From Schmidtea polychroa (Eukaryota): a stretch of 64,000 nucleotides of DNA. A program made the position numbers and the translations under genes. Position 1 is the first letter of the stretch. Each line of letters begins with the position of its first letter. Shown here one piece after another: positions 18,101 through 45,100 of the stretch. The notes below the pieces were generated by a model. It worked only from the letters and a program-made list of their open reading frames with translations, did no database searches and had not been told where the DNA came from. The stretch covers positions 81,840,001 through 81,904,000 of the forward strand of contig CM097888.1 of NCBI GenBank assembly GCA_044892525.1. Direction: 5' to 3'.

Positions 18101-21100
18101 ATGTCTTTTTCCGTAATAATTCGACCATCTGCCGTCCTGAAAACCACGGCGTCATCGGCCTTTTTTACTAATCTGCAAAAAAAATTATTAAATTTTTTCT
18201 TTTATTATAAACAAATTTAATATTTCAATATAGCCTGTCTATCAAAACATTATAAAACATTTTGTATTAGCTCTAAACAGTTCTCAAATAGAACTTTTCT
18301 GAATATTCTAAATATTATACATTTAAACCCTGTAACGACTGACAGGAGTGACAAGAGGGTCGACTGTACCCAATTATCCCTTTCCGAGGGGCGACAAATT
18401 TCTGTCGGACATTCGAGATATCAGAGTTTATTATCTGTAACCGCAGTTAGTGATGAGTGAAACTTACAGATGACAACATCCGTTTTATAAATGTAGTCAG
18501 TAAATTATTTCAAGAAATATTTTTAGATGGATCTTTAGAAAGACACAATTAAATCATTAAATCATGGTTTGAGGTCAAATAATTAACCCTTGTAAGTAGC
18601 TATGTTACAGATGTGATCCATCCATGGTGAAAAGCCTTAAAGGATTTTTGTTCACAAAACCATGGATATTAAATTAGATTAAAAGAAATCTCACAAGTAC
18701 GATTGGACATTTAGGAAGTTTTTGGTACAATAGTTGGTTTCTAGGAAGGTTTTAACTTTGAATTTGGCAATGAAAAGATGTAGAAAAGCTATATACATTG
18801 AAAAAGTCGAAAAAACTAAAAGTGCCAAATTTCAAGTCAAGCAGTAAATGTCTAGAAGTAAAGTATCCACAAGTCGATAATTTGAATTACCTTTTTTTAT
18901 AGATTTTCAGATTATTGATCAATATTTTTTTTCTTATTGAGCACAAAATTTTGGAACTATTTTTTCAAGTGTTTGTTCAATATATATTTTTTCAATATCT
19001 TGATTTGTACGAATATTTATTTGTTTATTTAATAATAATCAGCATTTATAATTATCGGTTTACGAACATAAGGAACTTTTGTTGATCAATTGCAACTATT
19101 ATTTTATATTTATTATCCATTTAATATTATAACAGAATATCGTGAAATATTGTTTCTATAAATATTTTAATAAATGTTATCTACATATATAATTACTGTT
19201 GTACGTAAGTCCCTTACGTCTAGGGCTTGCAATACCGGGATCCCGGTATTACCGACATTTTTAATACCGTTCAATACCGGTATTAATGACCACTTAATAC
19301 CGGTCCGGTATTAAATTTTTTTGCTGTAAGTTAACATTCATATCATTTTTATTTAACTATTTTATTTTTTATAAGTAATTAGCATATGTTTAGGTGTTGT
19401 CATGTTTAAAGATTAAATCTAATTTTGAAATTTACGTACAGGTGGCCCTACTGAAGTAATTTGTTTTTTTTTACATTAAGAAAGAGCCTTTTCGTACGTT
19501 AATTTTTCTAATACTAAAAAAATACTAAAAAAGACACAAATTCACATAGCAAGCCGTTTCTATGGGAAATTATTGTTTTCTATTTTTCCAAATTTTCAAT
19601 ATTGAAGCTATGTTTTTTTTTATAAAGAATAGTTAGTTAGTTCAGTTGTAAAGTTTTTGAAAATTTAGAGAATTGTGTTTGTGTATAATATAAAAGTTAA
19701 AAAATATTTAAAATCATAATTATAATTAATAATCATTAATTCAATTGATAAATAGCAGATAGGTAAAGGTAAGTTAAAAGTGTGAAAATTAATTATTGTA
19801 TAAGTAAAATTTTTATTTTCTATATATTTATATAGATAGCGGCGCTATCATAGCGCACTGCTGCGGGTTTTTTAAAAATTAAAATTAATAAATAATGTTG
19901 GGCTGAGTCGAAAATTTAATCGTTGAAAAATAAGAAAGTAGGGAAGTAGAACATTAAGAAAAATAATAATAAAATAAATAAAATCAGAAATAAAATAGAA
20001 TAAGATATAAGGAAAATAATAATTAAGACATAAGAATTAAAACAAAAAATAAAATTAAGAAAAGATTAAAATAGAACAAGTTGACAAATAAATAAAGAGG
20101 AATTCAAGAAATAAAAAGGAAATTAAGGAAATAAATAGAAAAACATATTAAAAATAAAGAAAATAAGGAAAAAACAACCTAAAAACAAGAAAATTATATT
20201 AAATTAATAGAAATAAGCGGTACTCAACTCTGATTGGTCCGCACAAATAAGAATTTGATATATATACAACTACCAAAAACATTAAATTTACTATTAACCC
20301 CGAGCATTTCATAGGTAAGAAAAATGTTTACTGGTTTTACTATTAACCCCGAGCATTTCATAGACATCTACAACTCACGGAGACTTAATTCAAGGATCAG
20401 CAATACTAGTAGAGCAACAGTTAATTCGGAAAACTTCACAGCAATTCGAAATCAGTCACAGCAATCGACATTCGACGAACCATCATCAGACTAATTTGGA
20501 ACGACTAACGTTAATTTTCCGATTCAGCCTAATTCCATAGTAAGGGATTTTTATTTATGATATTGTTTTTCGAAGTTAATAGTAAATATGTATATTTGAT
20601 GAGCAATTAAACTTTTAAATTTAAACAGACTCTCTTTTCATTTGATCCCGAATAACGATTTTGATAAAGTAAATAGTTTAAATGTTTAAAAGTATTTATT
20701 GGTAACAGGTGAACTCTTACATAATTTTTATGGATATTTATTTTGAAGTGATAGTTTTATGATTTCTAATATTAACGAGAAACGTGGCGTTGAGATACTC
20801 CATGTCATGGTGTGAGGTGCCTTCGGGAGCTCAGCCGGTGGACATGGAGTATTTCAATCACGCAGCTAGATTGGGCCGAAATGTGAAGGCTTCTTCACGG
20901 GTCCAATTGCTGAAGGACTTAAAATCTGTCAGAGTACCGAAATATAGACCGAAAGGAAACCTTCTGAAATTTTCGAAAATAGGATATGTGCTTCACAGCG
21001 ACTGAGGGAGTTCTCATATTAACTCTGTATTGTCCAGAGTCGTCTTACAAGACATTCATGCCACTTCTGTCTATAAACCCGAACTTACCATGTGGGGGAA

Positions 21101-24100
21101 AATACCATTAAACATCCATCGCTGGTCTTCTAACATATCGAGAAGTCGAAATTGCATTCGGTAGATTTTTGAAAAAGTAAATCTAATTTAGGTCATCTCT
21201 TTCAGATGCGACATCCAAATCTTAGCATATGATGAGGAATTTACAATAAAGGAAAAGTAAAACATAAAACCACAATAATACTGTATTCAATCACATATAT
21301 TAACAAAATCTGGTAATACCATTGAATAATTTTCATGCTGTTGCGTCGAAATATCCACTACTGAAATATGCTTCATAGAGTCTAGTTGGCTGGTTCGTAG
21401 AGATCTTCCATCGTTCAAAAACATCCAATATTGAGGAAATTACTAGTCGTAGTAAATAAATCCAACATCATAAGCTCAGATGGGAATCGACACGCGATGT
21501 AACATTTGTAGTTCGCTCAGTAAGGTTGATAGTTACAGATAAAATTTCCATCGAATAGGCACCCATACATACAGACATACTGCTAACATAACTATGAGTA
21601 GCGTCATCCGGTCAGAAATATGCATGAGAAACAGCAGAATCATTCCGAATGCCTCTCACCGCAGGGAATGCCGCCATGTGTCACCCTCTCTAGGATTCTT
21701 AGTGTGTGAGTAGTAATCAGTGGTCATATTAGATAATGCTGACATGAGATGTGACTTCCAGATGACTGACTCTTAAATTTCACTACTGATAAAGGTCATT
21801 CGTACCACTAAAAAGATAAGCCAAAATAACCAGTAACCGACTACTAGGATAAGAGACTCTCTAAAGTGCACTCATTAAAGATAATTTTGCTTAAATTAAA
21901 TATTCTAAATAAAAATCGAAATTGTTGAAGGGGTATTTTAATTAATAACCGAAAATTCAAACCAAACTTTATAACTCAACCATAGGAAGTTTTACCTAAG
22001 TGTTGTAGAGGTTTATCGTAATTCTAATTAGATGTTACAAATAATAGTAGTAGCCTTCGAGCCAAACTTAAATTAACTAAAGCATCTACAGGAATTTTTG
22101 GGTTATAAAATAGCTAGTAATATTGTATTTAAATTTCTCATATTCCATGTAGATTACGTATTGTAATAGAAAACTAAATCCGATAACAAATTATTATGTA
22201 ATTACAATATTTTTACGATGCTATATTTCTACGACGATATCACCGTATGGTATGGATAAGGGGTAATCATAAAATAGTGACGCATAGTTTATACGAAATT
22301 ACGAGTTGTTACTTATTCCGCTACTTGAGGTAAGGGTGCAAGTTTTTACTAGTTGCATTTGGTCCAAAAACCTTATTTTGCATTAGAATAACAACAAATA
22401 ATCAGCGAAATTTAAACGAAGTGTAGTATAGTGTATTTGCAATGAAATAGGTTTATTCACTCCGGCATGAACAAATCCGTAAATTGCCTTTATGTGCGAT
22501 AGATAGAAATCCAACTCGAACGCGATAGACGAAAATTTAAATTTTTACAAATAATTTGCATTCGTCAGGGAAGCAATCAGGGCGTTGAGGAATAATTTTG
22601 TAAAGGATACGTAAAATATTAGTAATCAAGGGTGAAGGGAGGGATCCTGTTTCATCGACTCGTCTTGTTTTCTTCCAGCACTAAGTATCCAATAGCGAAT
22701 AAACCGTATATCTGATCCGAAATTTTTAGATATAGTCATCATAGTTTTCTTCTTTAGCCATCCATTATGTTATCAAACAACAACTCAGCTCTACGTCCCT
22801 GCTTCTCCTGCTCAGATAAAAATGCAGTGATTAAAGATCTTCAAGCCCAGATCGGTCGATATAAACGACAAATCGACGAGCTGGAAGGGACATGGTTTAG
22901 TCCCGCTCGGATGAAGGAGATCCAAAAGAAGCTCGATCGTAGCGAGCATTGCCGGGACGCGCTAATATCTGAGAGCCGTGCCCAAAGAAGTCTAATCAGA
23001 GAACAATCCGAGGCACTGCATAAGGTTTACGTGCAGGCGGCTACAACCCGAAAAATTGTGCAGATTCCCATCCGAGAGGCCGATGACATCTTTCCGCCTC
23101 ATCACAACCTTTCCTCGAATCCATCTCCACCGTTCAAGAGACCGTGCCGAGACTGCGTCGAAACCGAATTGTCTCCCCAGCGACCAGATGTTGTCATCAC
23201 GGGTACCAGTAAGCCCCCCACTGCTAGTCCATCCGTATCAGTCACCCTTCCGCAAGTGGCATCTTCAAGCAAACCCAAGCGAAAACAACTTTCTCGTGCA
23301 GAGCGCAAGAAGAGACAGCGCGAGCGCGCTACTACAAAGCCAAACATCCCATCAATAGAGGACTCAACTAACGATGGCAACTCTCACGTGTCCCTCGACC
23401 TAACAACGGGACCCTCGGCACGAATCATATCAGCCGCTGGTGTAACGTGGGAAGAGAACGCTTCCGAGTTCTTTAACCTCGACGAATTATTCGCCGACGC
23501 TGAATGGGAGAAACAATAAAACCCCAGTGGCGGTCAGGATGAGGAACAAGGATCCGATCTATGTTGATTATGGTGTTTTCTCTTCTTTCGACAAACATTA
23601 GTAAAGTGTACAGTTGAATCCTTATGTTATAACGTTGAAATTAATAAATCTTGTTGTCTTACACGTTTTCGTTCATGAATAATTATACTTTAATTAAGTG
23701 GGTGGGGTAGAGAACCCGCAAGATCTAGTGAGAAATTCCCAATTTGCATTCAGCGAATCCCGATAAGCGGTTGTGTAAGGAAATGGACGTAAGCCCTTCT
23801 ATCGGCAGTCGTGAATGGGAAGTCGAGGCCTCAGCAAGGAGTAGTTTTAAGGCAGAAGCTCACCTGCTTGCTGGCGTCTCGCCTGCATAGTGCAGTACCA
23901 ACGTGAAGTGATTCACGGGCACTATGTTGGAAGAAAGTTATGTGGGGTTTCACTCCAGGTTGACAAATCGGTGGCACCTTTTATTCGAGATGGACAATCA
24001 ACCCTTAGACCCGTCAACATGGTAGAGTGGTCAGCCGAGGTGTAACCCCAACATGATTTTTGGGGGCTCAGCCGGGATACAGTCGATTGAATTTCTATTA

Positions 24101-27100
24101 ACGAATGCGAAATTCACCGGGATTTTCATACAAAATTAAAGGGATTTATCACATCGATTTTCTGTTTTCGACCGACCATTGCTTGACGAATGCAAATTGA
24201 CTATTGATTATTAAATTATATTAGGAACTAAGTAGAGAAAATCAAAATGTAGATAATAGAAAAATTAAGGATATATATAAATAAAGGAGATAAAGTAGTC
24301 AAATTAAATAATTAACAATGGTTAAAGAAACCAATTAACGAATTAACTATTAATTTACTACATATTATTAAAACATTACTTTTCCAACAGCTATGACAGA
24401 ATTCGCGAACCAAATGCAACAACTGCTCAAGTTTATCGATATAGAAAACGACTCCCTAACAACACTGACGCATAAAAGAGAAAAAATCAACGCGATATTA
24501 CTACAAGCAATCGGACAAACACCAGTCGTACCTAATCCTATGATATTAGCCACAGGCCTAAGTCGCCCAGATGGGAAAATAAACCCCGAAACCGTATATC
24601 AGTGGTATCAAGAGAGATTGAACCACCCAACATTAAATCTAGATTATCAGCGTCTAAAAGACTCACTAAATACAATACCAGATGCAATCGAACAAAAAAT
24701 ACAGGAAAAAGTTAACCAATTACGAACTTGTATAGCCTGCAAACTCCGTCCTATTCGCGTATTATTCTTGCCGTGTGGACACCTCAGTCACTGTGAAGAG
24801 TGTGTAAAAGACCTAAAAAGATGCACGATGTGCAAATATGAAATAAAAGAGACCCATATGGTCTATTATGGCGAATGAAACGGCCGGCGATGTAACAGCA
24901 AGTATACGATGTTTGAACAAGAATGCATGAAATTGTTGAAGTAACACGTACTGTTAATGATTCAATCTTTATGTTTATGATAAATAAATTCGTCTTTAAA
25001 AAGTTTTGATGATTAGGACTAATAAAATTTGCATGACGAATGAATATTTGCGTGTTTGTTTGGTTTTATTCTTTTTCTTCGGAATCAAATGAAGAGAGGG
25101 TTGAATAACGTGGAATTAGTCCCAATATAGACTGCAGGGGTACAAACCGAGCCACCTTCGGGCGGTACGTCTTATTGCAAGAACCCGTTGGGAGGGGATA
25201 ACTGATCAACCCAAGTAAGAAGCGTAGGGCGGGGTACCATCGCATATGATGAGAAGTTTTTGCGACATGACTGATCACCATGCCAATGTAGAAATGGATC
25301 ATCGCGATCGTCGTGCGTTTTGAGCAAGGGGGGAAAGGGGAAACACTCCCAAGCGGTAAAGATTAAGTCGACAAATTAAAAGTAGACAGAGAAAATGGTA
25401 AACTAGAGTAAAAGAAGAAAAGAGAAATAGAAGCATGCAGAGCGAGGAATATTGAAGCCGAGCTGTCGAATAATCCAGCCGGTCAAGGAGGAAGACTGAG
25501 CTGTTGAATAGTGCCAGCCAGTCGTAAGGTCGAGTTGTGAAAAGTCCAACCGATCAGGAAGGAGGAAGATTGAGCTGTTGAATAGTGCCAGCCAGTCGTA
25601 AGGTCGAGTTGTGAAAAGTCCAACCGATCAGGAAGGAGGAAGATTGAGCTGTTGAATAGTGCCAGCCAGTCGTAAAGGCCTAGAAAAGCGGGAGATAGCA
25701 GTTAAGCTACAATGAGATAATATTTAAATTACTAGTGATATGGAATATTAAAGCTAGCTAGAACAAACTGAATGTAATTTTGAAAATTAGAGTTTAGAGA
25801 GGAAATAAACGAGCTCGTGGAAAAGAAAATAAGATTATAAGGAAAAAGGAAAGGGAAGAAGGAAACGAATTAAAGAGATAATAGAAAATAAAGAATAGAT
25901 GAAATGATGATAATGAGTAAAGAGGAAAGTAACTAACTAATTAAAGGGATCCCAGTGAAGTAGAGAAACTCTACGGAATATTTTTTTTGGTTAAACCGGG
26001 AAAATGCATTTTATTGGTTCCAGAGTAGAACCGAGCGTAATAATAGTGAATATGAAAAGTAAAATAGCGACAACAGCGCAAAAGGATTAGGAAAATGAAA
26101 GGGGGGTAATAAGCAGAGACCGACAACGACCTATTTTTACTATAATTGATAACGAATAGATAATTATTACGACTTTATAGATAATTGTTACTACCCCATA
26201 TAGATAATTTAAAATCGACGGAAAATACGGGCTGATGGGATATTATAAACCGCAGAAAGGATTTCACAAAAGATAGGGGAAGCACAAACAGAAACCTAAA
26301 AGGCGTCTGTTTTTGAATGTTGTAGAAAGAATGATGAAGTCGTGTAAGCAAATGCAACACGAGATCATTTTTTCATTTTAGATATCAAGCCAATCCAGCC
26401 AACCAAGACAATCTAGAACCTGCACAAAAGGAATTCGAAGAAATCGACAATCAACCAAGGATAAATCCATTCAGAACCCGCACCGAGAGACACAGCAACC
26501 GGAAGACTCCAGAACGGAAGAAGTATCAGCAGCCATCTGCCAAGGATTAGTAAATCTCCTCAGGACCTCAGTAGCAGATTCATACAGAATATTTATCGAA
26601 GGAAACACAATCAGAACCGAACGCGTCCAATTCAATAGCCGCTAATTACCAAGAAGCGTAAGGAAGGAATCACGGATAAACCCAATCTTAGATCTTCTAG
26701 TAAGCCAGGAGACGTATTATTTTCAGGAGACGAATTACAACAACTCAAAAGAGGACGATCCATTAAACATCAAAGAGGAATATCACAAGGATCCAGAAGA
26801 ACCAATCAAGTACCCATATTTGACCAAGAAAATCTCGGATATACCCCTAGTCGATCTCGAAGTAGAGAAAGTCTGTCCGATATCACTAATAGTTTAGCAA
26901 CGTCAACCGAAGAATTATCAGCCCAAAGTTTAGTCACATCGTTAGACAATTTAAAAGAAACAGACGAACCTAGAACACCAATCATGACGAATGTCGTAAA
27001 AACCGACGAGTATAAAGAGAAGTTCAGAGGAGAACCGTTCAACGGAAATGCAAACAAGCTAGCAACGTTCATAACTAATTTTGAAGTTTATATCACTGTG

Positions 27101-30100
27101 TGTGGATGGACACCCGAAGCAATTAGTAAAAGGATGCCGTTGTTTTTGTGCGATAGTGCATTAGAGGTATATTTAGAAGCTAAAGAGAGAGACACGAAAT
27201 TAGAAAAGTGGGAAGATATTAAAACATTCCTGAAGAAAACCTTCGGAGCCAGTAAGCCAATCAACCAGGCGTTGGGCGAACTAGCAAATAGGAAACAAAG
27301 AGCAAACGAATCGATAACATTATATGCCAGTGAATTGCGGAGATTAGCGAAGAAAGCAATGAATGGAAAATTACCCGAAGAAAATCTGATCGGTTATTTC
27401 ATAGAGGGATTACGCCGAGAAGAAGTAAGAGCCTCAGTAGGTTGTCAAATGTGCAAAACATTAGAGGAAGCCATAGATTGGGCTACAAGATGCGAGCTCC
27501 ACCTTCCAGCTCAAATGAATATTATGCAAGAGGAGGGAAGGATAGCGACAGCAATAGCGAAAGCGGATAACGGAGATAACAACAATCAAGAACCGAAAAT
27601 GAATCAATTTATACCAGGAGCGCACCAAATTTTCAAACCACCACAAGGACGATCAAACGGGAATAATGGTAATCGTAACAACCCGAATAATGAGAACAAT
27701 TTCAATAATCGGCGAAATATGAACGATAACAAGCAGTGCCGAACATGCGGTAAACCAGGACACTGGGACAGAGATTGTTATAGAAATTCAACTTGTAATC
27801 GTTGCGGACGGCGTGGACATACCGAAAATGTATGCCAATTGCGAGGCTGTTTTAACTGTGGTCAGCCAGGTCACATCTCCAGAGATTGCCGAGAAAGGGG
27901 CCAACAACAACGACCACCACAGCGAAATAATAATTATATAGCGAATCCGCAACGACAAAGTAACCCTAACGAAGGAAAACAAATGAACGTTATGCAGGAA
28001 ATTTCGCAGATGAAACAGATGATGCAACAAATGATGAGACCAAGACAAGAATCAGCACCACAACAAACCCAGAATATACGTATGATGAGGAGTACCGAAA
28101 ATCTCAACAATTATGAAGTGCATCAACATGTACAAGAATGGCAAAGGTTACAGGCCGAGGAAGAGAGGATAAAACAAGAACGCAACCAACAACGACAAGA
28201 ACAACCATTGCGAATAAATATGATGAAGTTAGTAAAAGACATGAAGAGCCAGTATTGCTACAATTACGGGAAAAGCCCAAGGGTAGTACCCATGACTGAA
28301 CCAGAAAAGGTAAAAGAAATAACAACGGAAATGAAAACAGAGAATTCAACCACGATTTTAAAAGGAAACCAGAGAATTCAGAAAATATTCTGGAAAAAGA
28401 TGAAGGATAAAATCGAAAAAGAACATAATAAAGCGAAAACCGAGACAGAAGATGAAAATAACAAGAGCAAGGAACAAACCAGTCAACTAAACCACCAAAT
28501 GCTACAAGAATCAGAATCAGAAGAAACAACAATATTCGAAAGAAAGAAACTAAAGAGAGTACCAAGGATGAGAAACTTGCAAATCAATATGATGAAAAGG
28601 ACAAAAGATGTAGCATCGTCAGACGAAGAAGAAGATTATGTAAGTAGTTTGGGTGGAGAAATACTACAGCCGAATGAAATAAGCGAACCCCCAAAAGGGG
28701 AAATCAAAGAGGAAGAAAGCGGAAACGAGATAACCAGTGAAAGTGAAGACGAAGATATCGAAATAAAGTTGAGAAAAGCAAGGGAGGAAGCGATAAAACA
28801 GGTAGTCGAAATACTCCCAGTAGTAGTGAGGAACCAGGAGTTCATCGACGTAATACCATTCAGGCGATTCGTACAAAAAGTGATGAAATTGGAAAGAAAC
28901 GAGAAAGATCTAATACCAAACGAGGAAAAATCAATTATAAAAAATTATATGGAAAAAATGAAGCAGGCCGATACCACGCGGTATGTAATAAAAATTGGAA
29001 CGAGTAGAGGACTTGAAAGAATGTGGATAAAAAATACAGTCACCGACGAACTTTTCGATTGGATACGAGAACATTTGGGAAGTTCGAGAAAGAAAGAATA
29101 TCTGTATCAATACCAAGGAGAACAGATCAAACCAGATATGCACTTAGTAGATGCACTAATATGGCCAGGAGAAACGCAAATACTGAAGTTGCATAAAGAA
29201 AAACAACCAGCCAACCTTTACGATTGGGCTAAAGATGCCAAGGCAGAATATGATTTTAATATCAAATTGAAATTAGAACAAATAAAACAATGTACTCTGA
29301 GACGAAACCTGGATAAGCTGATCAAACAAATTCAAGAACAAGTAGAAGACAACTGGGATTTACTCATCACCAGACGAGCCCCAGCCATGTACGAACTAAT
29401 GAGCCGGTTGCGAGATACAGAAATGCTCCGAATGAGTGATTGGAGAACCATAAATTTGATCCACAAATATGGAAGGTTAAAAGAAACCCAGCCACAGAGG
29501 TTGGAAATAACCATATGGTTACCGAACGAAGAAAAACGACGAATAAAAATGAGCAATCAGAGTACAGTGGACGACTTGGTATCAAAAATAAACCAAGAGA
29601 TAACGGAAAAGGTACGTAGCGAAAGTAGTGATGGTATGGTGGATGATGTAGTCATGATGTACGATAAGATAATATTACGAGCGGAGGACGACACCTCGCT
29701 AAGCGAAATGGGTATGTGGGACAATCATCAGATAATCAGGATAGTACCAATGGATGAATTCCGAACAAGAGATGTAACATATCAAAAAGAAATACGAGAC
29801 CGGATGAAAACGTTATATCAAAAATCTACAGAAATAATTGAAATCCACCAACAATGGTTAAAAGAAAAAGAGCTACAAGGAAAAATCACGAAATTAAATA
29901 CCAGATCCTGCAGACGAACCCCATGGGAAAGAGTGTGGAATGCAGAAAGTAAGGAATGGGAAATCCGGAAAGGAATCTTCGTAGAAACAGACATCGGTGA
30001 GACAGAAAGTGAATCGGAGGAAGAAGAAGAGGAACCCCCAGAATATGAAGAGGAAGCAAGGGGACAGACATCAGATGACGAAAGCGAGACGGATGTCACA

Positions 30101-33100
30101 TCAGAAAGCGAAAATGAAGCGAGACATATTCATGCAATGAGGAAAAAGGAACGTGAATATGCTGATATGGACGGCGAAGAAGCGACGGAAGCAAGAGAAC
30201 GAGAAGAGACAGAAAGGTATAAACAATTAGGCGATATCTTAGCAATGGGAGCGAAAAATCAAAAACGCCAGGTAGTAGCGTTGGCTAATATCATCTTAAA
30301 AACATCAGAGAATATCCACAATCTGAGAGGAATGGCAAAGGCAATAGAGGAATACCGGCAATATAATGAATGGTATCCAGAACAGCTAGAACAAATTATT
30401 CGAAAATGGAGAAATCAGGAATGGGCACAAGACACCCAGGAGAGGTATCACATCCGAATCAAGTATCCGGACAAGAGCATCGAGGAACTAGAGGTGCATC
30501 CAACAACAAAAATTAGAGAATTAAAAAAGAAATTAGCATATGAAACTCCATTCCATCTGCAACTGTTCGGAAAATCACTAGACGATAATGCAGACGTCGG
30601 GATAACACCCATGAGATTGGAAGAGACAAATGTATTAACAATGGCGGAAACGTTGGGGAAACCGTTAAAAAGGAAAAGTAAAATTATTAAACCAACAAAA
30701 GGCAGTTTGAGTACTCCAAGTCCGAACAAAGCACCAAATAAATCTAATGAAACTGAAGAAGTTGAAGAGATAATCCTGGAAGATAGTGACGATGAACCAG
30801 GAGAAAGATCACCGCTATTAGTGAGATGGCCGACAGGAGCCGAAATGTGGACTAATAACCAGCCATCAACGAGTTATCAACAACCAACGAAACTGAACAT
30901 CAAAGAAATCATCGACAATACTACGGAAACCGAAACGGATGAACAATTCCAGAAGCAAAGAGAACCAACGAAAGTAACACCAGAAAGTCAAACCGACAAA
31001 ATAATAGACGAATGGAATGAGTGGCTAAGAAATAACGATAGCTCATTACCCAGAACGGATAACGAAAGAAATCCGAATTACGAAAATACCAGAGAAGCCG
31101 GAACGATGATGGAAAAACGGGCAAAAGGAAGACCTAAGAAACAAGGAGAAAAGTCTGAGTTCAAAACCAAAGAACAATTAAAGCAAGAACAAGGGCAAGT
31201 TCGATTAGAAAAATTGGATAAAATAGTATGGGATCTAAAGGAAGCCCAACCAACGATCGAAAGAGGAGAAAAATGGATACGAGAATTGTTAAAAGATATG
31301 TTAATAATAACAAACCCACAACTTAGACGTTTGTGGCAACGGAAAGTAGCCAGTACGGAAGCTAGACAATTATGGCACACCATTTCGGGGATAATCCCAA
31401 AGTTAATCAAAGAGAAAACGAAAACCACCAAAACGGATTGGGACGAAACAAAGAGAGTGATTGAGCAGCTCACGACAAATGCAAATGATGACGAACATCA
31501 CCTAGTGGTAATCACGTATTTAATGTATAATTTGATGGGACTAGCGGCGAGGAAAATACCAAATAAACAGTTTGCAAATCATGTGGAAATGACCGTTTCA
31601 ATCATAGAGAATACTATTGAACCACATATTATTCGTGCAGGAGGATGGAAAAGACTGATACAAGCGCCACGGAAAAATGAGCAAGAAAGGTCGATGCAAG
31701 TTAGATTGAAAAAATTATTAAATGAACTAGAATGGGAACTACCGATGAAAGATCCCGCAAGCAGAAAAGCATCAATAAATTCGTTAATGATGACTATGAT
31801 GATATGGATGTTGTGCACAAGTGGAGCAACAGGTTTCACCATCTACGATTGTGATAATATGATAATGAGAGATAAATACTCATTGAGAGACATAGAAGAA
31901 TGCAGACAAGCCTCACCCAACAAATTGGACATCGTGAGAACAAAAGTTACTTACCATGTATATCAAGAATCAGATTTCATCAGAACGCAAGCAAGGGAAT
32001 GCGTAGTATCAAAAAAGGTACTCGCATATTACTGTGGACAATATTCGTATTCGACTCTTATACTACCCGGTCTGGATAAAGAAATCGTATCAATACAACG
32101 AGAGGATTGTAAAGAGCTATTTAGAACCGGAGCGCTAAAAATGCATAACGGAGTGACAATTCACGGACAAACTGGAATGATTAAAACCGAAAGTGTTTAC
32201 GTATCCGGAAAAGTAAAATCATCAGATGGGTCATGTAACGGGGGGACGTATACGATCCGAGGCGAGGTAATATCGGGAGTTGTAGTGATCGAGTCTTACA
32301 CGGTCGAATTAAAAGAATACGAAGCGCAATTTGACGCAAATAATTACCAAATGAAGACCAACCCAGCGTGTAAAGCTACAGAAAACGTATGCAGGACAGG
32401 AGTATCAACTATAATCTATGAGGCTAATACCCAAAAATGCCGACTCCAACTGTTAAAAAGTGCTTTGTTCAATGAAGTAAAAGGAGAAATATATGAGAAC
32501 GAGAACGACGAGGATGGAAACGACAGAGTGAGAATGCGAAATGGAAAACCAATGCCACCATCTCCCAGAGAAAAGAGACTTTCAACGCAGAAGACACCAA
32601 CAGCATTAATCACAGACGACCCAGATCTAGGTATGAGATTTATCAAAGAGAAAGAAACCACCAAATGTGACAGTATAGTATATAAAACCAATTACGCAGG
32701 TATCTATATGTCGAGACAAATAATCGATAGAGCAGTGGGAAAGATAGCAACGGAGGACGTAAAACTATACTTATATGCAAATAATAAAATGGATTTTCTA
32801 TTTCATCGCGGACAAACGACCTTGCAAAAAGTATATTACGATCTGATACAAAACGATTGTTCATTGAATAAAGAAATATTGAAAACAAAGCTAGCTATTG
32901 CGATAACGCACCCCGATAACACGATGCCATCACTCCCATTACCAGATGGACACTTTGGTAGAATGGTAGGAGAAGTGATGTACACATACCAGTGTACCAA
33001 GACGTATGCACGAATGCCAGAAAAATCCATACTACCCGAAAAGAGATGTGCAAATGAATTAGAAATCCGTTACAAAGGACAAAATCGATTCGTCCAACCA

Positions 33101-36100
33101 GTCACTAGAATTATGAATCCAGTGGGTTTCTACCCAAATCTCTTTAACTGTTCTAATGCATACGGACCTTTATATGAAAGGCCCGATGGGAAATGGATGA
33201 TGTTACCGGGAAAAACCATATCCGAGGAGCCCAAGAAATTTGGATTAATAGAACTCGCCACAGAGCTGGATTTCAAACCTATAGACGTGTCAAACGGTGG
33301 TATGTATTCCCCAGAAGATCTAGAAACAGCACGACTTAACGTACTCTTTCCAGCCAGACGAGAATCCATTTTGTCAAATATGGTTACAATAACGGGGGGA
33401 ACAAATTATCAATCAGGCCCGAATTACGAGCTGCTATTATCGCCAGACCATTTTCAACAGGCTACGTCAAACATGATGAAAGCAATGTGGGGAAGATTCT
33501 TAGTTTTTGGACAAATGATGGCCGGGATATTAGGGATCATACTCATAATTCAGATAGTCAGAGTAATACTAACACAAATGTTAGCTTGTTTTGATATATA
33601 CAAGCGAGAAAAGAAAGTAAATTGGAAAATGATAGTAGGCTTTTTACCATTTTTAGCTAAAACCATGGTATTACATGGTCACTCAAAAGACATTCATCGG
33701 ATAAAGCGATTGATTAAAATATTAACAAAGATTAAAGGAACCGACGAAGAAGTAGGCAGACGATTCCGGAAAGTAATGTACGATGAAGCAACAAGACGAC
33801 AATTGAAAAAGAATAAGCCAAAATTCTTGGACCGATTTAGAAGCCAATCATCTAACAGCGATAGTGACGACGATGATAACGGGAACGATAAATGTCTTTA
33901 TCCGAACAGAAACCCAAACGAAAAACCAATGGAAACGGCACCATATTGGGAAAAGGAAAAGACAAACACCTGGATCGCCAATGGAAGCTATATACCACCG
34001 GATATCGTGGGACCACAAGCAGCTTTGACCATGACACAAAATATGTATCCGCAATTACCGAGTCAACCCGGTATGCATTATATGCCAACACGACGTACCA
34101 AAAGTGTAGATCAAGCAGATGACGTAAGAACAATCGCAGCAATGAGTCTACCTGGAGGTCCAGCAGTGACAGTCATGATTCAAATCAATGGTAAAGAAAC
34201 CAATGCTATGATAGACACAGGAGCTAATGTATCAGCGATAGCGATTAATCAAATTCCCAGTAAACACTGGAAAGATATCGAATCAACAACAATTCACATC
34301 ATAGCATGTAGTAAAGAAACAGTGGACGTGGTCGGAAGATGGTGGACTACATTGAGATACCAGGACAACGAAATTGAAACGTATTTGGCAGTAATACCAG
34401 AACTTAGCGTACCATGCATAATCGGAACGGATTTGATGCCAGAATTGTTAAAAGAAGTCGTAATTGACTTAACAACCATGTGTTTAAAAGACAAAACCGG
34501 TAGAATATGCAAAATGAATGCAGTCATCAGATGTCCAGAAAAAATAATAGTACCAGCAAAATCGCAGATGATTTGTCAGATAAAAGTGGATACGGGTATG
34601 GAAGGAGAAGTTATCTTTGAACCAAGCAAGTCATTCGAAAAGCGACGAGAATTACCACTCGCAAGAGAAATAATCACAATAAACCAAGAAGGAGTGATAC
34701 CGCTCAACATCACGAATTTCGAAGAGGAAGACAAAATCATTTATGAGAACGAAAAATTGGGAAGATTGACCCCAATGATGGACATAGAATTACCGAAAGT
34801 GACCAACGAGATGATCAAAGATGATGAATTATGGACAATAGATAGTATGTTGTTGACGAATGATGAAAAGAAAAAATTACACCGATTGTTGGTAGAATAT
34901 AAAGATATATTCGCCATCTCAGACTTAGATTTGGGTACATGCGATGTTACCCTACATGCAATACCCCTCATAGATGAAATTCCAATTGCATTAAGACCAT
35001 ACAAGCTAGCAGAAATGCAAAAAGAAATAGCCGAAGCAGAAGTACAAAAGATGCTGGACGCAAAAGTAATCGAACCAAGTTGCTCACCTTGGCAATTCCC
35101 AGTGGTCATGGTGAAAAAGAAAGATGGCACCCAACGATTCTGTATCGATTATCGGAAGTTAAACGCAGTGACCAAGAGAGATACCTATCCATTGCCGGAC
35201 ATCAATGAGATGTTATTGATGTTGCAAGGGGCAGCATATTTTACTTCTTTAGATCTAAAAAGTGGATACTGGCAGATTAAAGTCAAAGATGAGGACAAAG
35301 AGAAAACAGCTTTCACGTTGGGACGAGATCTATATCAATTCAGGAAAATGCCATTTGGACTGACCAACGCACCAGCATCATTTCAACGGTGTATGAACTT
35401 TGTCACCCATGGAATCAAACAATGTATGGTATATATTGATGATTTACTAATCTATTCAGCGACATTTGAACAACATCTGGAAGATATCCGAAACGTATTT
35501 ATTAGATTAAGACAGTGGAAACTCAAACTCAAACCATCAAAATGCGATTGGGCAAAGGAAAAAGTCACGTTTTTAGGACACATAGTGTCAGCTAAAGGAA
35601 AGGAGCCAGATCCAAGAAACATTGAGAAAATAAAAACATGTCCAGCACCGAAAACTGTCACCCAAGTTCAGGAATTTCTAGGATTATGCGGATACTATCG
35701 CAAATTTATCAAAAATTATGCAGGAATTGCAAAACCAATCCAGGAATTAGTAAAGAAGGACATTTCGTTCATTTGGGGGAAGGAACAACAAGAGGCGTTC
35801 GAAACGCTGAGAGATAAACTAATCGAAGCACCTATCCTCGTACACCCAGATTTTAAGAAGCCATTTCTATTGGCAACGGATGCAAGCGGGTACGCGGCAG
35901 GCGCGATTCTGGGACAATTAGATGATGAAGGAAAAGAGAGAGTAATCGGGTATTACAGTCGAACATTCAAAAAGCACGAAAAGAACTATTCGGTAACAGA
36001 ACGAGAAGCATTGGCTATAATACAAGCTATCAAACACTTCCGATATTTACTATGGGGACATGAGATATGCATAACCACAGATCATCAACCATTAGTGTGG

Positions 36101-39100
36101 TTAGGGCAACATAAAGAAGCGTCCAGTAGACTGATGAGATGGGCCATGCAATTGCAAGAATACTCCCCATTTATAAAATTCAAAGCGGGAAGAGCAAATG
36201 CCAACGCCGATTGTATGTCAAGATTTATTTTCCCAGATTTGGTGGATTCAGAAATGCAACGCATATGCTTAATAGTAGCGGAAGATTTGGATTTCTGTCA
36301 ATTACGAAAGGACCAACAAGAGGACGCGGAATTAAAACAAATTATCGATTATGTAAAAACCGGAAAGACAGAGGTATATGCGAAAGACCAAAAATTAAAA
36401 GAACATATGGATAAACACCGACACCGATATATTATAGAGAAAGATTGGTTGCTGATAATGGATGGGGAAAAACGATTAATGTGTATACCGGGAAACCGAC
36501 GAAAAGAGTTACTAACGCAATATCACGACGGGAGATTGGGAGGACATATGTCATCGAAAAAGACGTTAGCAAGAATGAAACAGAAATATTTTTGGCCTAC
36601 GTTAACTGAAGATGTAACCGAATGGGTAAAAAAATTGTCTAACTTGTGCAACCAGGAAGAATACTGGATCGAAATGGAAAGCACCTTTAACACCAATGCC
36701 AGTACCAATAGAACCAATGACGATGATATCCATGGACGTAGTTGGTCCACTACCAGAGTCAGATAAAGGAAACGTTTACATTCTAGTGATCACAGACTTT
36801 CTTACGAAATTCCCAGAAGCATTCGCGATGCCAGACCAAAAAGCTAAAACAATCGCAAAAATTTTGGTAGAAGAGATATGTTGCCGATATGGAACACCAA
36901 AACAAATCTTAACCGATCAGGGAACTAATTTTATGAGTGAGATAATGAGCGAAGTAACAAATTACTTCAAAATAGCAAAACTAAGAACCTCTCCATACCA
37001 CCCTCAAACCAATGGGATGACGGAAAGATTTAATGGAACACTTATACAAATGTTATCAAACTACGTTGACCGTCACCAACGAGATTGGGACGAATATATA
37101 AACCTATGCCTTATGGCATACAGAATGTCGATTCACGCATCAACGAAAATGAGCCCATTCAAATTAATGTACGGAAGAGAATGTAATATGCCAATGGACC
37201 TAGAATACCAACCACCGATATCACAGTATATGGAGATCGATGATTATGTTACGAAATTCAAGGAAAGAATGCAAGAAATTTGGGAAACTGCGGGATTAAA
37301 TATCAAGTTCTACCAGGAAAGTTATAAAGATTTACACGATCGAAAGAAAAACGTGAAGCAACATACGTTCCAAACAGGTGATTGGGTAATGATAGAAACC
37401 CCGGAATTAATTCCAGGAACCACAAAAAAGTTACAACGCAACGGAAAAGGACCATATGAGATCTTATTCGTAGGCGAAACTAATGTAAGAGTGAAATTGG
37501 TAAATAACCCCTTTACCAGACCAATATACGTAAACGTGGCACGATGCAAATCAATTCCAAAAACAGCCACCAGTCAACCAGAAGGCCGTACATTAACCAC
37601 ACGTTCGCAAACCTACCGAATGAACATGATGCAACAACTCGCAGAACCGATCACCGGACGATTGGGTATCCAACCATCAGAAGCGGAAAAAATTGTAAAA
37701 GAGGTAAAAATTAAAATACCTGGATGGGCAGAAGATCGATTAGATTTCGAAATATTAGGAGGATTATTGACGATGATCGAGAACTATGCAAATAGAGAAA
37801 GGACACACCCATTATTGCGAGTAGTCCAAAGCCAATGGCCAATATTATTTACAATAACAGATCATTACGGAGACACACCATTACACAAACTCATGAAAGT
37901 AGGTAACAACGAGCAAATACTAGAAACAATAGAAGCATTTCACGACTGCAAGCGATCAACAGAACAAACAAACAACCAAGGTTACACACCATTAATGATA
38001 GCCGCAAACAGAGGTAAAACAAAGGACATTATAACCGCATTACTCGATACCGGATCGAAAATAACTACACAAGACCACGAGCGGAAAAACGCTCTACATC
38101 ATGCTATCGAAGGGAGAAGTACCGAGGCGTTCACGTCATTGATGGAACTACTATCATATGAGGACAATCGGGAAGTCGGAAACATGTATGATGGATTGTT
38201 AACAGCGATCAAAGAAAAACTGACGACAATTACCGGAATATTAATTACATGGAGAAATCCAATTCGAAACGATTATATGATCAACGTAAACGAAGCGTTC
38301 ACGAGAGGAGAGAACACGCTGATGAGAGAAGCTATGAAAGGACATCATTTATTCGAAATCCCGAATCAATTACTAGAACGAGGGATAAAATTCACAAATC
38401 ATAAAGACGAACAGTTAGCAAAAAAGCGAATCGACACATTCGAAAAATCCCTATTCCAATTTACTAACCAAGTACGAAATAAATATTGGGAAACGGTAAG
38501 TGTGTTATATATGATGGACACGATGAATAACATCCGCGAGAATTACCTGGATATTATCCAAATACTTACAGCAGAGGAACGAATCAATAATCCAAACGGA
38601 AAGAAAACGAAAATAAGGTATGAGAAATCCAGGGAATCAAAGTCAACAACGAACCAAACGGTCACAAACAACGTCATCAAAACCAAATCAATGAGTACAG
38701 ATCAAGAGGCAATAATACGCAAAGCAAAAGAAGTGTTCTTTGAGGAAATGCTAGAGCTGCCAGACGAAATAATATTATCCAAAATCATAAAAGCCGTACA
38801 CACATACGCAAGAGATCAAACCACGGGTTTAGATATCGGGAAAATCAAAACCTTCTTGCCTCGAGCATTTACGATGGTAACGAAGGATTCCAGAACACCC
38901 CTACAACAAGCAATACTAGCAGCGAAAGAAAATAGAGCAATAACGATCGTGAGAATCCTTGGAGAGATGGGCGAGGAAACCAACACGAAAAATGAACAAG
39001 GTGAAACCGCCATGATGTATGCAGCTATAACGAAAATACACCCAAAAACACTCCACATCCTACATCAATCAGGATCGAAACTAGACGAAAAGTCCAATGA

Positions 39101-42100
39101 AGGAAATTCCACCTTGGACTGGGCAACCATACAGCCAAACTTAGAAATGATCAGATTTATTTGCAAAAATGCGACAAAAGAAGAAGTTGAAAATATGTGC
39201 AAAAACACATCTCAGTTTCAATGGAATACGGTACGGAAAAATCTAGAAGCAATGAAATTATTATTAACCTGGAGAGTACCACAAAATAATAAATATGCGA
39301 TAAACGTAAACGAATTCTACGAAAACGGAGAAAATGCGATGGTAAAGGATACCCTAACTAAGGGGGGGACGCCTAAAATTATTTTAATAGTATTAAATAG
39401 AGAAGACCTAAAATTCACGCAAAATCAGAACGAGCAACAACGAATTGGGAAACATCGTCGTATGCAATTGAGAGAGTTAGTTAAAGAATGGAATAGAAAG
39501 AGACATGCTGCAACGGGTAGAAAAGAGTTTGAATTCGAAGCAAAATTAGCAAGAAACAGAGTGCTAACAGCATATCGCAGATTATTGAACGATATAAATG
39601 TCGAGGACGACATTTTAAATGACAGCGGGGGAGATAAATACGATGACAATGATGGAAAAGGCCGGAAAGAGGATAAAGGGAAAAGAGAACCGGAAGAGGA
39701 TAAACCGGAAAACAAGGATTTGGATACGAAAAGAGAGGGAAACAGGCCGGGAACCAAGACCAAAGAGGAGGAAAAATCGAATAATGGAAAACAGAGGGTA
39801 TGCCTACCTTTCACTAACAAAGAAATAGAGACAAATATGATATTAATGATAATTATGCTTACCATGATAGAGTTAGTAACAGCTCAGGGAGGGACGAGAA
39901 CGATAAAAGAAACCAAAGAAGCGGAGAATCAAGATAGCAAAGAGGATGAACTAAAGCAAGAAAAGAAAAAGCAAACACAAGAGCAGCAGTGGGATTTAAA
40001 GGAAGAATGGGACTTAAAGGAAAGGTGCATACTAGGAAGATGCATGTCTAGAGCGTATCAGAAACTAGTACTGATAAATGAGGACACAGAACCAATAACA
40101 GAAGTAAGAATACAAGAAGCATACCGAAATCGAGACGGGAAGAGAATAACGAACGTCAAAGGAAAAGAGGTACACCTAGGAAAAGGTGGTGAAGTAGTAA
40201 TAACGCAGCTCCAACCAAGAAAAGAGCACAAAGTCTGTATTTCAAGATTAGGACCGGGTGAGAGATGCCATCAATATGTGACGCAGCAGCAGCCCCCGAA
40301 GGAATATACGGTTTGTATCTGGAGGAACGAATCAAAAAGAGAATGCCGACGATACCCGGGGAAAAGAGGAAAGAAAAGGAAAAACCACGACGAAAAGGAC
40401 GAAGGAGGAAAGCACAAGAAAACCGGCGAGGAAGCTCAGGACAACTATGTTTCGGAGGAAGAGATGGAAAAAATACAAAAGATGGCAAAGGAGGGTATGA
40501 ACGAGGAAATAGCAAGAATACGGGAAATGATGAAAGGAAATGGCAAAAGAGGAAACGAGAAAGGTACAGGAGCAATATCAACATTAACAAACAAGGAAAA
40601 ACCAGAGAGTATAAGCGTGAAGCAGATGATGTGGATCAGTGGGATAATAATAACAGGGGCATTCCTAATCATAACGGGGGGAACAATAAAAATAATTAAG
40701 GATAAACGACATCGCGGAGAACTAGAAATGACTCGAATCAGAAATTTCCAACATCGAGTGAAACGACCAAGTGATATCAAACAAGAACAGTGGGTGGAGG
40801 CCTGGAACGCTCAGCGCCCCCCAAACTCACGTATATAGAAAGGAATATGACTGTATATAATTGTAAAAAGTAAGTATATCTTATGTATATAACAGTACTA
40901 TATCTTTATATAAGCGCGGTATCAATATTATACAATAACGGGAATCATAAAATAAAATTAAATTTACATAAGAGTTGAAAAGTGTATATAAATTAGGAAT
41001 GGATCAAGGAAATAACGAAATGAACCACAATACCGTAACTGAAGAATTATGGAAGCAACAATGTGCCGTATTAGCACAATTAGTGTCCAATTTGCAAGAA
41101 CAAGGACTAACGATGCACAGAAACCTGATCGAGAGTATGAACAGAGGATTTAGTTATTTGAAGATAATTGAAGACCAGAGGTTAAAAATCGAACAAATGC
41201 AAAGAGAGATAGAGAGGATAACCCAATATAGCCGTCGACAGGAAATTGAAATAGACAGAATGATGGAGGAAGCAGAACAGACAGAAATAGAAGACTGGTC
41301 GGAATGGCTAATGAATAGAGAGGAGAGCGGACACGAAGCCGACTCTTCCGAACCCTAAACTAAACCTAGCTTAAAATGTAAACAATTGTAAATAAAATAT
41401 CGAACCTGTATCGATAAGAACTATTTGTACATATAATTATAGAATGGATAAACGACAAAGAGAAGAGTTCAGAGAGATTGTCGAGCAAGTCCGAAAATCT
41501 ACAACGATCAGAATACACAAACATGTTATGTGCGGAATATGTGAAAAGTTGTTAAAGGAACCTCACCAAACGCAATGTGGATGCAGAGTATGTAAAGAAT
41601 GTATCAGTGAAGCAATAAAAAATAGACCACAGAGGTGCCCGGTGTGTAAAGAGACACTAATATCGAGTTTAGAAGACACTAACGAGGATAAAGCCGCAGT
41701 GAAAGACATGTTAAACACCAACCTGGGATGCAAAAATGCCCCATGCGAATGGAAAGGAGTAATATGGAAGGTAGTACAACATATGGGAGAATGTATGTAC
41801 AGAATTGGCCAGTGTGAAAGGTGCCATAAAACCATTCGAGCAAGCGAAGAAAAAGAGCATCAAAGGCAGTGTGAAGAGAGATTGGAAAGATGTGAACACT
41901 GTGGAGAAATAGATACGTGGAAAAATCTCACCCTCAAACATCACAATGTCCAAGAGGAGAGAGTATGTGCAGAGTTCAGTGGGGAATGCCCAAACGGATG
42001 TAACCAAGGGGAAATAATGAAGGTGGCACAGCATCTAAGGGAATGCGAAAAGAAAAGAATGACATGTGTACTAGGTAGATGGGGTTGTCAGAAACTACTA

Positions 42101-45100
42101 CACCGAGGTGAGTTACCACATCATTTAGTAGGAAATGCTTCAACTCACGCAGAAATGTGGTCGACTGCGTTACAAGAAAGCGAAGAGAAAGTAAAACAAA
42201 TGGAGATAGAGATAACATCGTTGAAAGTGTTAGTCAAAGAACTACTAGAAGAAAGGAAAGCGTTCGAGGAAGCCCGAGCAAACATAAAGATGCAAATAAA
42301 CCGAACAGAAATCAGTAATAATCAGGCCAAGGAGCTACATCAGAAAATACGAGAAATAAATCTAAATGAGATAACCCCAACAGCACCCTACATATGGAAA
42401 ATAACGGGAGTAAAAGAAAGAATACGAAAAGCAAAAACCGGAGAAGAGACAAGAATAACAAGTCCTACATTCCATTCTTGGAAAAATGGGTACAAAATGA
42501 AAATGAAGATATATCCCAACGGGGACGGAACCGGATTAGATACGCACTTTTCGATTTTCTTTCTGTTATGTAAAGGAGAATACGACGAAATATTAGAATG
42601 GCCGTTCCAGGCAAAAATCGATATTACGCTGATGAACAACCGAAGTATACATGAGCAAAGCTTCAAAACAACGGGGAATCAAATAGCTTACCAGAGGCCC
42701 CTCAACGAAGAAGGATCAGCAACAGGAGCACCTACGTTCATCTCACAACAAAGAGTAGAAGATATGGCGAGAAATGATACCATATATATCAAGATGACCG
42801 TGAGGAAAGAGGAGAAGGGTAGAACGGAGTAACCAATCGAATAATGTTGTATATAATAATCTGTATATATCGGTGTATATAACCAATAAAATATTATATA
42901 ATAATAGTATGAAAACCCTAAATACGAAAACCCAAAAATGATGCGAAAATTTCCCAAGAAACAGTAAATAATGAATAAATTCCTTTTTCATAATAAAAAG
43001 ATTAATCGATGTCTATGATTTAGAGATGACACAAGAGAAAATAACCGAAATTGCGATAGACCCAACCAATGTCAACAAGACACAAATTCCCCGAGAACAT
43101 AACAAAAAATGGAACAAAGTAATGTTCCAACTAACTAATCTCACCCGAAATCACATCGAAGAAACTAGAGAAGATGAGAATAGTCAATACCAATGGTTAA
43201 TACACAACTTAAGAGCGGAAGCAGAAGCATGCAAAAGAGCATCAAAATGGGCGTCACTAGAAAATACCCGCCAAGAAGCACACAGCCACTACTTAAAGCA
43301 GCTAGTGCAGGAAGCGAGAAAGAGACTTACCGATGAGAACACCAAGCGCGAAGCGGAAAAACGAATAGAAGACAGGAAAATGATGCACTTAGTGGCAGAA
43401 GCGAGAAAATGGAAAAGACAAAACAGAGAAATGAAAAAAGAGATGAAAGAATTGCCCATGAGACTCGGATATGAAAGCGAACAAGGTAAATGGGAAGAGA
43501 ATTTAATAATAAAGGAAGAATTGAAAAGGTTGAGAAAGGTCGCCGCCCGAAGCCAAACCTGGCAAACAAAGGCTATGGAATTTGAGCGACATTTGGCATT
43601 AAAATGCGACATAAGAGAGCACGAGAATGCCGCAATGGAAGAAATGATAACCCAACAAGCAGGACGGATTGTGGAATTGGTAAATCAGGTCGGAGAGATG
43701 AAAAGAGACCTTAATGGATTACAAGGATCGTTAGAACAAAGAAACATGGTCCTAGCGGGAAAAAACAGAAAATTAGAAAACGAGAGGAAAATGTATACCG
43801 AAAATATCAAAAACTTGGAAATAGAAATTGAAAAATGGAAGGGCGACGAGAAAATCAAGGCCCTAGACAAACAGATAGAGGCGAAAGATGAAGAGACAAG
43901 GTATCTCACCTATCTGCTCGACGAGGAATTGAATATCACTCGAGCTCTAAGAGACGAAGTTAGTGAATTGAGAGCTCAAATTCCCCAATATTACCTACCA
44001 TACGACCCTATTGCGATACAGTTACATTCCGCGGTCGATAGTGATGAAGGTTATGTAGGCCAGGAGGAAACCTTCGTATGAGGGTGGATGAAAAGATGAA
44101 AAACTAAAAACCGGGACGTATATCCCAAACAAAAAAAAAAAAAATTTAAAGTATTGTAAAAGTATTCAAGGGACTGTAACCCAAACTATTAAATTTTATA
44201 TCAATGTATACGTATAAGTCGCACTATAGCGCACCATTAACTGTACATATTATAGATATGAAAATCGAGGAAATGATAGAAATTATGAGCGACATAGAAG
44301 AGGGAGAGATTGAGGCAGAAACAACAGAAACACAAACGCTAAAGGCCGAGTTACGGGAAGAGAAATACGAAAACGGGAGATTAATAAACAAATACCTGGA
44401 GGACCGGAAAATGATAAAGGTGTTAAAGAAAGAGTGCGAAGCGTTGGGGGAAATAAAAAGAGAAACGGAAGAGGAAAATGAATGGCTACACGAACAAAGG
44501 AAGCGAGGGAAAAACTGGGAAAAGATAGCGGAAGAACTATGGAAAGAGAGGGCAAGCTTCAAAGCAAAGGAGGTAATCCAAGACTACTGGAAAACTGAGG
44601 CGAAGGAGCGCCAAACAGCTATAAATAAATTAAAACGACAACTAGAAGAAAACCAACGGGAAAGTAAAGAAATGAGGAAGTGGGTCCGCAAATATAGAGA
44701 AATAGAAAGAAAACATCAACAACAAAATTACCTGCAAGAAAACGAACAAGATCTCCTACAAATCGAGCTAAAAAGAAACCTTGAAAAGAAAAGGGAAGAA
44801 ATTAGACGCTTGGAAAAGGAAATTAGACATCTAAAGAGAGAAGCCCGTGAAAAAGACCGACAATTGGAAATGCTGCCCGAGTTAAGACACAGGGTAATTA
44901 ACGCAGAGTCCACCTTGATGAGAATCGGCGAAAATAATCCAAATCAGAACCATTAAATTAAGGGTCATTAAAACCAATTGTAAATAAACATAATGAATGT
45001 ATAATAGTATCATGCGAGGCGAGATGATGATAACAATGATGGTATTGATGATTCTGATGGAGAGCAAACAGATAGACGCCCAACCGAAAATCGTACGAGA

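Follow-up and report, generated by a model that had tools for sequence, protein, structure and literature searches.

A diverged Bcl-2-family domain lies directly before the predicted Env signal peptide in the polyprotein of a giant LTR retroelement of Schmidtea polychroa, and cleavage by signal peptidase at this junction would leave the domain with the signal helix at its end, likely tethered to the ER and with a function that is likely not that of a classical BH3 groove. Taken as a whole this reading is tentative, and is given a little less than an even chance. The element lies within the window, i.e. the whole stretch of 64,000 nucleotides of DNA that was analysed, and the features on which the argument depends are as follows (window coordinates and strand).

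19896-50048 (+): LTR retroelement, 30,153 bp (30.15 kb)
19896..24053 (+): 5' LTR, 4158 bp with TG...CA ends and the same sequence as the 3' LTR; ATAA on either side of the element is a 4-bp target duplication
24372..24878 (+): accessory ORF with a C-terminal RING finger (zf-C3HC4_3, Pfam E 3.8e-11)
26639..36766 (+): ORF1 polyprotein, 3375 codons from stop to stop (ORF list and Pfam)
30452..30556 (+): weak match to the ubiquitin family, ahead of the Bcl-2-like domain and lacking a GG end (Pfam E 0.0057, below cut-off)
31274..31660 (+): Bcl-2-like helical domain, approximate limits from profile evidence (Pfam stretch 31433-31648)
31478..31534 (+): turn at the BH1 position, NANDDEHH, without Trp-Gly-Arg, and the hydrophobic central helix LVVITYLMYNL, from alignment
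31625..31657 (+): BH2-like motif HIIRAGGWKRL, polyprotein residues 1663-1673
31661..31762 (+): linker after BH2, predicted to be helical
31763..31834 (+): predicted signal peptide of Env, in which a basic RK is followed by the apolar run LMMTMMIWMLCT and a polar c-region, SGATG, that places A at -3 and G at -1
31835..33571 (+): Env glycoprotein (Monjiviricetes_fusion PF24664, Pfam E 1.4e-69), with FTIYDC as its predicted mature start and the transmembrane helix as its far end
36630..40838 (+): downstream frame with integrase core, ankyrin repeats, a second signal-like helix (39837) and a transmembrane helix (40641)
41396..42832 (+): accessory TRAF-like ORF with RING and MATH domains (Pfam E 3.7e-27)
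45891..50048 (+): 3' LTR, a copy identical to the 5' LTR

The identity of the 4158-bp LTRs, together with their TG...CA ends and the ATAA flanks, marks the insertion as young. In ORF1, Pfam matches follow the order Gag, zinc knuckles, ubiquitin-like segment, Bcl-2-like domain, Env, protease, RT, RNase H and integrase zinc domain, and the copy in the window is broken at the integrase, since the integrase core and the ankyrin repeats continue in a different frame. A genome search with a 211-residue query returned 1128 candidates; all 150 that were scored are 92-100% identical, 140 of them have no stop within the match, and many lie within a frame of 4732 codons. The element is Gypsy-like, ~30 kb in size and multicopy, with long LTRs, an ORF with Gag, ubiquitin-like, BCL2-like, Env, protease, RT, RNase H and integrase segments (in one frame in many of the other copies) and a cargo in which Pfam detects ankyrin, MATH and RING modules. 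By these features it is a Burro-type giant LTR retroelement, a class assigned from the published description of Burro.

Burro/GYPSM1 elements are giant Gypsy-like elements of dugesiid planarians and share with the window element the size of ~30 kb, the long LTRs, the order of the giant ORF and a cargo of ankyrin, MATH/TRAF and RING modules (PMC6431247), whereas in the window element TRAF has an ORF of its own further downstream, and the 12 proteins scanned with Pfam gave no BIR match. Section 7 of PMC6431247, which refers to Grohme et al. 2018 and to Jurka 2007 on Burro, lists a ubiquitin-like motif, a BCL2-like motif (credited to Grohme et al. 2018) and an Env between BCL2 and protease, and contains nothing on the fate of the signal peptide. 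The Bcl-2-like domain and its position next to Env are thus already published for Burro (PMC6431247). A Gag-Env-Pol order in Platyhelminthes is also a feature of the GAG-ENV-POL errantiviruses with HSV/gB-type Env, in which the ectodomain likewise has a signal peptide on one side and a transmembrane helix on the other, or a transmembrane helix on each side (PMC13524379); the terms 'BCL' and 'Burro' are absent from the main text of that paper, supplements apart. Our literature search returned nothing on the fate of the helix in such elements, and the anchor idea may be contained in the primary Burro papers or their supplements. Since the literature already has both the domain and its location, and rubella virus offers a known case of a retained signal peptide, the gain is one of testable detail and not a new kind of system.

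Several other features of the element and its surroundings were observed. Each LTR contains a 253-codon ORF (22758-23519 and 48753-49514, +) with no convincing Pfam match, and the 5' leader contains a 74-bp unit in three tandem copies (25485-25706, +). Three further accessory ORFs are present at 42975-45665 (+), two of them coiled-coil-looking and the third hydrophobic over an N-terminal stretch, with a transmembrane helix likely. Just past the 3' LTR, a hAT transposase remnant, split by a stop, occupies 50219-52147 (-).

The window domain taken alone gives a thin signal. It matches the Pfam Bcl-2 family (PF00452) at E 0.043 and 14.8 bits, where the cut-off is 31.4, has no Bcl-2 chain among its PDB matches, and reaches a probability of 26.7% with free-standing Bcl-2-type exons of the same genome. 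It is the profiles of its relatives that settle the matter. Seven element families were compared, consisting of the window family, five families from genome searches (with PF00452, PF24664 and P0002) and P0002 from the representative library, the one protein found in a search of a 1.84-billion set; domain identity is 18-35% among the five that were compared pairwise. Two element-only profiles found Bcl-2 or Bcl-xL in the PDB in 60 of 60 rows among the matches listed (165 and 158 matches at E <=10), with best E-values of 1.7e-4 and 2.7e-5, and the match spans the alpha5-alpha6-BH2 half of Bcl-2. All six members of alignment A1 match PF00452 at E <=1 (best 4e-7), three copies of family B exceed the Pfam curated cut-off (L052, 33.3 bits; L074, 32.6; L063, 32.2), and profile-profile comparison with the free-standing Bcl-2-type exons of the genome gives a probability of 95.4% (E 1.7e-8). 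Moreover, a profile without the window family and without the helix, whose alignment columns had been built with the window row included, scores the window domain at 33.2 bits, as opposed to <=12.2 for 1000 shuffles, and its sole positive match in the 3375-aa frame is to residues 1584-1673. The domain is, on this profile evidence, a diverged Bcl-2 homologue, as had been proposed in the preliminary description of this DNA. A match to Ribosomal_L17 (Pfam E 0.027) is present in one of six family members and was taken as chance.

Wider searches added little to this picture. Nothing was found at E 0.001 in an external search of a 5.8-billion set, none of 262 pattern matches was confirmed in a metagenome scan, and the ESM Atlas had no usable match for two domains; absence is not implied by any of the three. 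Among eight joints listed in contigs of four runs, three of these runs only guessed to be RNA, none leads into the Bcl-2 or Env region, a result that is uninformative on a spliced message. Fold models are of low confidence, with a pLDDT of 46.7 for a single-sequence AlphaFold model of the domain and 51.3 for a second model. Foldseek with the latter gave no match at E 0.001, and its top probabilities are to the Bcl-2 family, the highest, 0.72, being to mouse A1. With VIA-align, the Bcl-2 family accounts for nine of the 50 rows listed, at Z 4.0-4.9 (a level the tool terms common), rmsd 3.9-5.0 and 109-133 residues aligned, and the top row is unrelated to Bcl-2 (Z 5.0, 80 residues aligned).

The domain is under purifying selection, though no more than its neighbours. 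Comparison with six ungapped sister-subfamily copies (81-82% nucleotide identity; eight were fetched, two being left out for gaps or partial cover) gave dN/dS ratios of 0.016-0.025 for the Bcl-2-like domain, 0.021-0.030 for the Env N-terminus and 0.035-0.043 for the upstream spacer, which are rough values because dS is near saturation. In the same copies the signal helix has 1-3 non-synonymous and 10-12 synonymous differences. Since selection on Env is as strong, and that on the upstream spacer nearly so, purifying selection does not single out the domain.

The BH motifs differ in their preservation. The GGW of BH2 is the same in every element family aligned and in the alignment's three rows of free-standing Bcl-2 type, and in the window family the first Trp of BH2 is replaced by His while the GGW ending is kept. 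NWGR, which had been noted as missing, is indeed absent from the window domain, where the aligned position reads NANDDEHH. At the position of the BH1 Trp-Gly-Arg the seven families have D-E-H (window family, by alignment and with an insertion), K-S-R, R-D-K, G-D-R, E-N-R, R-D-V and K-E-V, so that Trp and Gly are replaced in every family and Arg is retained in three, the window family not among them. In human Bcl-2 the mutation Gly145Ala has been reported to abolish Bax/Bak binding (PMC5841437). Nevertheless, several free-standing Bcl-2-type genes of the same genome also lack the BH1 Gly, and its loss is therefore no proof that BH3 binding has been lost. Judged from its motifs, the domain is not likely to work as a classical BH3-groove apoptosis inhibitor. 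Poxviral Bcl-2-fold proteins would provide the comparison for a hypothetical inhibition of NF-kB by the domain.

Compared with the cellular and viral Bcl-2 family at large (PF00452; Bcl-2, Bcl-xL, BHRF1, CNP058), the element domain shares the alpha5-alpha6-BH2 core, by profile, and a hydrophobic helix at the tail position, but differs in having no BH1 Trp-Gly, in its location inside a polyprotein and in a tail that cleavage would create and that does not end in basic residues. The preliminary description had placed a cleavable Env signal helix about 40 residues after BH2, with no other transmembrane segment ahead of Env, and this arrangement is confirmed, the cleavage as a prediction. The hydrophobic run LMMTMMIWMLC begins 42 residues past the BH2-like motif, at residue 1716 (31784), and residues 1-2292 contain no 19-residue Kyte-Doolittle window >=1.4, the sole such window in the frame being the Env transmembrane helix (33515-33571, from residue 2293). 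The signal helix itself scores no more than 1.15 in a 19-residue window and 2.05 in an 11-residue one. The predicted cut is at G|F, after G1732 (31834/31835) and before TIYDC, 62 residues past GGW. In two sister families the Pfam Env match starts, at positions 5-6, on the signal helix, which is accordingly best taken for the signal peptide of the glycoprotein itself.

The same arrangement of Bcl-2-like domain, signal-peptide-like helix and Env, each directly after the other, recurs in all seven families, where the conserved Env start, x-x-x-Y-D-C, comes after a patch of basic residues, a brief apolar run and a polar segment. The length from GGW to the cut varies between 42 and 70 residues, and the shortest, 42, is about that from GGW to the end of the protein in free-standing tailed Bcl-2-type genes of the same genome (43). 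Under the (-3,-1) rule, a signal-peptidase site has small residues at -3 and -1; such residues occur at the same site in six of the seven families, as against 10% of positions in ORF1, and also in a second family-B copy. With 3-4 K/R within eight residues ahead of the apolar run in 8/8 rows, a short apolar h-region and small residues at -3 and -1 (by rule), the helix has the make-up of a cleavable signal peptide, and the predicted signal-peptidase product has a single C-terminal hydrophobic helix. The apolar run has 5-14 residues by strict count, and every family has two to three helix-destabilising residues (Asn, Ser, Cys, Gly) in or beside it; one family has an Asp within the helix. Only 0-1 of the last six residues are basic in the element helices, compared with two in four of the five free-standing tails examined. 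Nothing was drawn from a biological hydrophobicity scale, on which the free-standing tails scored as poorly as the signal helices.

In the reading preferred here, the helix would act as an internal signal sequence that sends Env into the ER lumen, with a predicted cut three residues before YDC, and after the Env transmembrane helix the protease and Pol are predicted to be back in the cytosol. Because the signal-peptidase cut makes the helix the end of the upstream arm, whose N-terminus is cytosolic, the arm would have the topology of a tail-anchored protein, and the Gag-ubiquitin-like-Bcl-2 arm would initially be membrane-bound. The element protease would subsequently free the domain from Gag and the helix would keep it on the ER, where it may be one of several host-modulating cargo proteins, together with the TRAF, RING and ankyrin modules, working through a non-canonical surface. 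The membrane-anchored viral Bcl-2 made by signalase, as first envisaged, is consequently upheld in its topology, in that the helix is left on the domain, and weakened in its permanence as an anchor, the helix being short, devoid of a basic C-terminal flank, ER-directed and seemingly open to signal peptide peptidase (SPP). If the helix persists, it would constitute a Bcl-2 anchor made by viral polyprotein cleavage, with a location tied to Env synthesis.

The HCV core and the flavivirus capsid had been put forward as precedents for a retained helix, and in this role they fail, as both lose the helix on maturation (PMC7601889). As predicted for the element, signal-peptidase cleavage leaves an internal signal sequence attached to the upstream protein; unlike the proposed anchor, this sequence is later removed, by SPP in the HCV core, and likewise in the pestivirus core, or by NS2B/NS3 in flaviviruses, whose mature capsid is without the anchor, while full-length C may serve assembly (PMC7601889). 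By analogy these three favour a transient anchor. A fitting precedent for retention is the rubella virus capsid, which keeps the E2 signal peptide, so that the signal peptide of the downstream glycoprotein forms the hydrophobic C-terminal anchor of an upstream anti-apoptotic protein (PMC3040668). The analogy has limits, since the capsid is no Bcl-2 homologue and acts through an arginine-rich motif, its helix is required for mitochondrial targeting but dispensable for blocking apoptosis, and retention has been shown there and is predicted here (PMC3040668).

The strongest rival, itself rather unlikely, is that the helix is an ordinary signal peptide, cut by SPP after signal peptidase, leaving the domain soluble or peripheral like the tail-less poxviral Bcl-2-fold proteins. 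SPP prefers helix-destabilising residues (PMC4457021), a preference matched by the short apolar core and the residues of this kind in all seven families, and removal would follow the HCV and pestivirus core precedents (PMC7601889). The same geometry, moreover, is seen after the ankyrin block, and as this layout recurs there, a domain placed before a helix needs no Bcl-2-specific explanation; the geometry may be a by-product of polyprotein layout, with membrane proteins inside a polyprotein. What speaks for an anchor is that free-standing Bcl-2-type tails are no more hydrophobic than the element helices (KD19 1.03-1.44 in four of them and 1.15-2.43 in the elements), and that the domain is beside the helix in every family, whereas the TRAF module shifts its place between elements. 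It was also observed that the second internal signal-like helix and transmembrane helix (39837-40697, +) could tether the ankyrin-bearing product in like manner; a small second surface protein, of no clear Pfam family, is predicted from this region.

Two further explanations concern what the tether would be for. The helix might mainly hold the uncleaved Gag arm on the Env-bearing membrane for assembly, with the Bcl-2 fold as a spacer or adaptor close to the membrane in the particle and not a regulator of cell death. This is decidedly unlikely, even though Gag, the ubiquitin-like segment and the Bcl-2-like domain form one chain until the element protease acts, BH1 is degenerate, and no di-glycine signal for release by a ubiquitin hydrolase was found, the only GG in residues 700-1730 being that of BH2; rubella capsid (PMC3040668) and full-length flavivirus C (PMC7601889) would be its precedents. 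Against it are the invariant GGW of BH2, the other death- and ubiquitin-pathway cargo of the element, and the ~200 low-complexity residues between the ubiquitin-like segment and the domain, within which the protease could cleave. Two more segments of ORF1 (28931-29800, +) look ubiquitin-like by eye and have no Pfam ubiquitin match. Alternatively, a classical tail-anchored viral Bcl-2 at mitochondria might sequester host Bak/Bax or BH3-only proteins and protect the host as the Burro1 IAP does, which we regard as very improbable. The rubella E2 signal peptide can target mitochondria (PMC3040668), the BH1 Arg is kept in three families, and Burro1 reportedly uses a captured BIR-RING protein to protect stem cells (second-hand, PMC13465017). 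These points are countered by the window family, which has none of the BH1 Trp, Gly and Arg, and by the missing basic C-terminal flank of the helix. Insertion as an Env signal also implies the ER.

A more speculative scheme, itself unlikely, goes further. A captured Bcl-2 would have had its own tail swapped for the Env signal peptide, and one helix would translocate Env, tether the Gag arm for budding and then anchor a protease-released, groove-less and host-protecting Bcl-2 on the ER, which would explain the adjacency to Env across families that are ~20% identical. A Bcl-2 homologue that purifying selection maintains in retroelements both abundant and recently active would be a second candidate, with the reported Burro1 IAP, for tampering with cell death in planarian cells. 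Burro1 transcripts have been described as being under PIWI control (PMC8532177).

The free-standing Bcl-2-type genes of the genome deserve mention in their own right. The best-scoring free-standing exons (L042 and L053) are too distant to name a donor. Many short, dispersed Bcl-2-type genes lie beside a TBP-like ORF (L093:4155-4502, -; L094:4775-5233, -; L046-L051; L053-L060), and at L093 an A32-like packaging ATPase is also adjacent, which makes them Polinton/Maverick-like cargo. With these copies besides the Burro-type domain, two unrelated mobile elements in the genome carry Bcl-2-type genes. In addition, seven near-identical Bcl-2 exon copies with NWGR intact (L031-L037) are found within ~0.9 Mb on contig C4.
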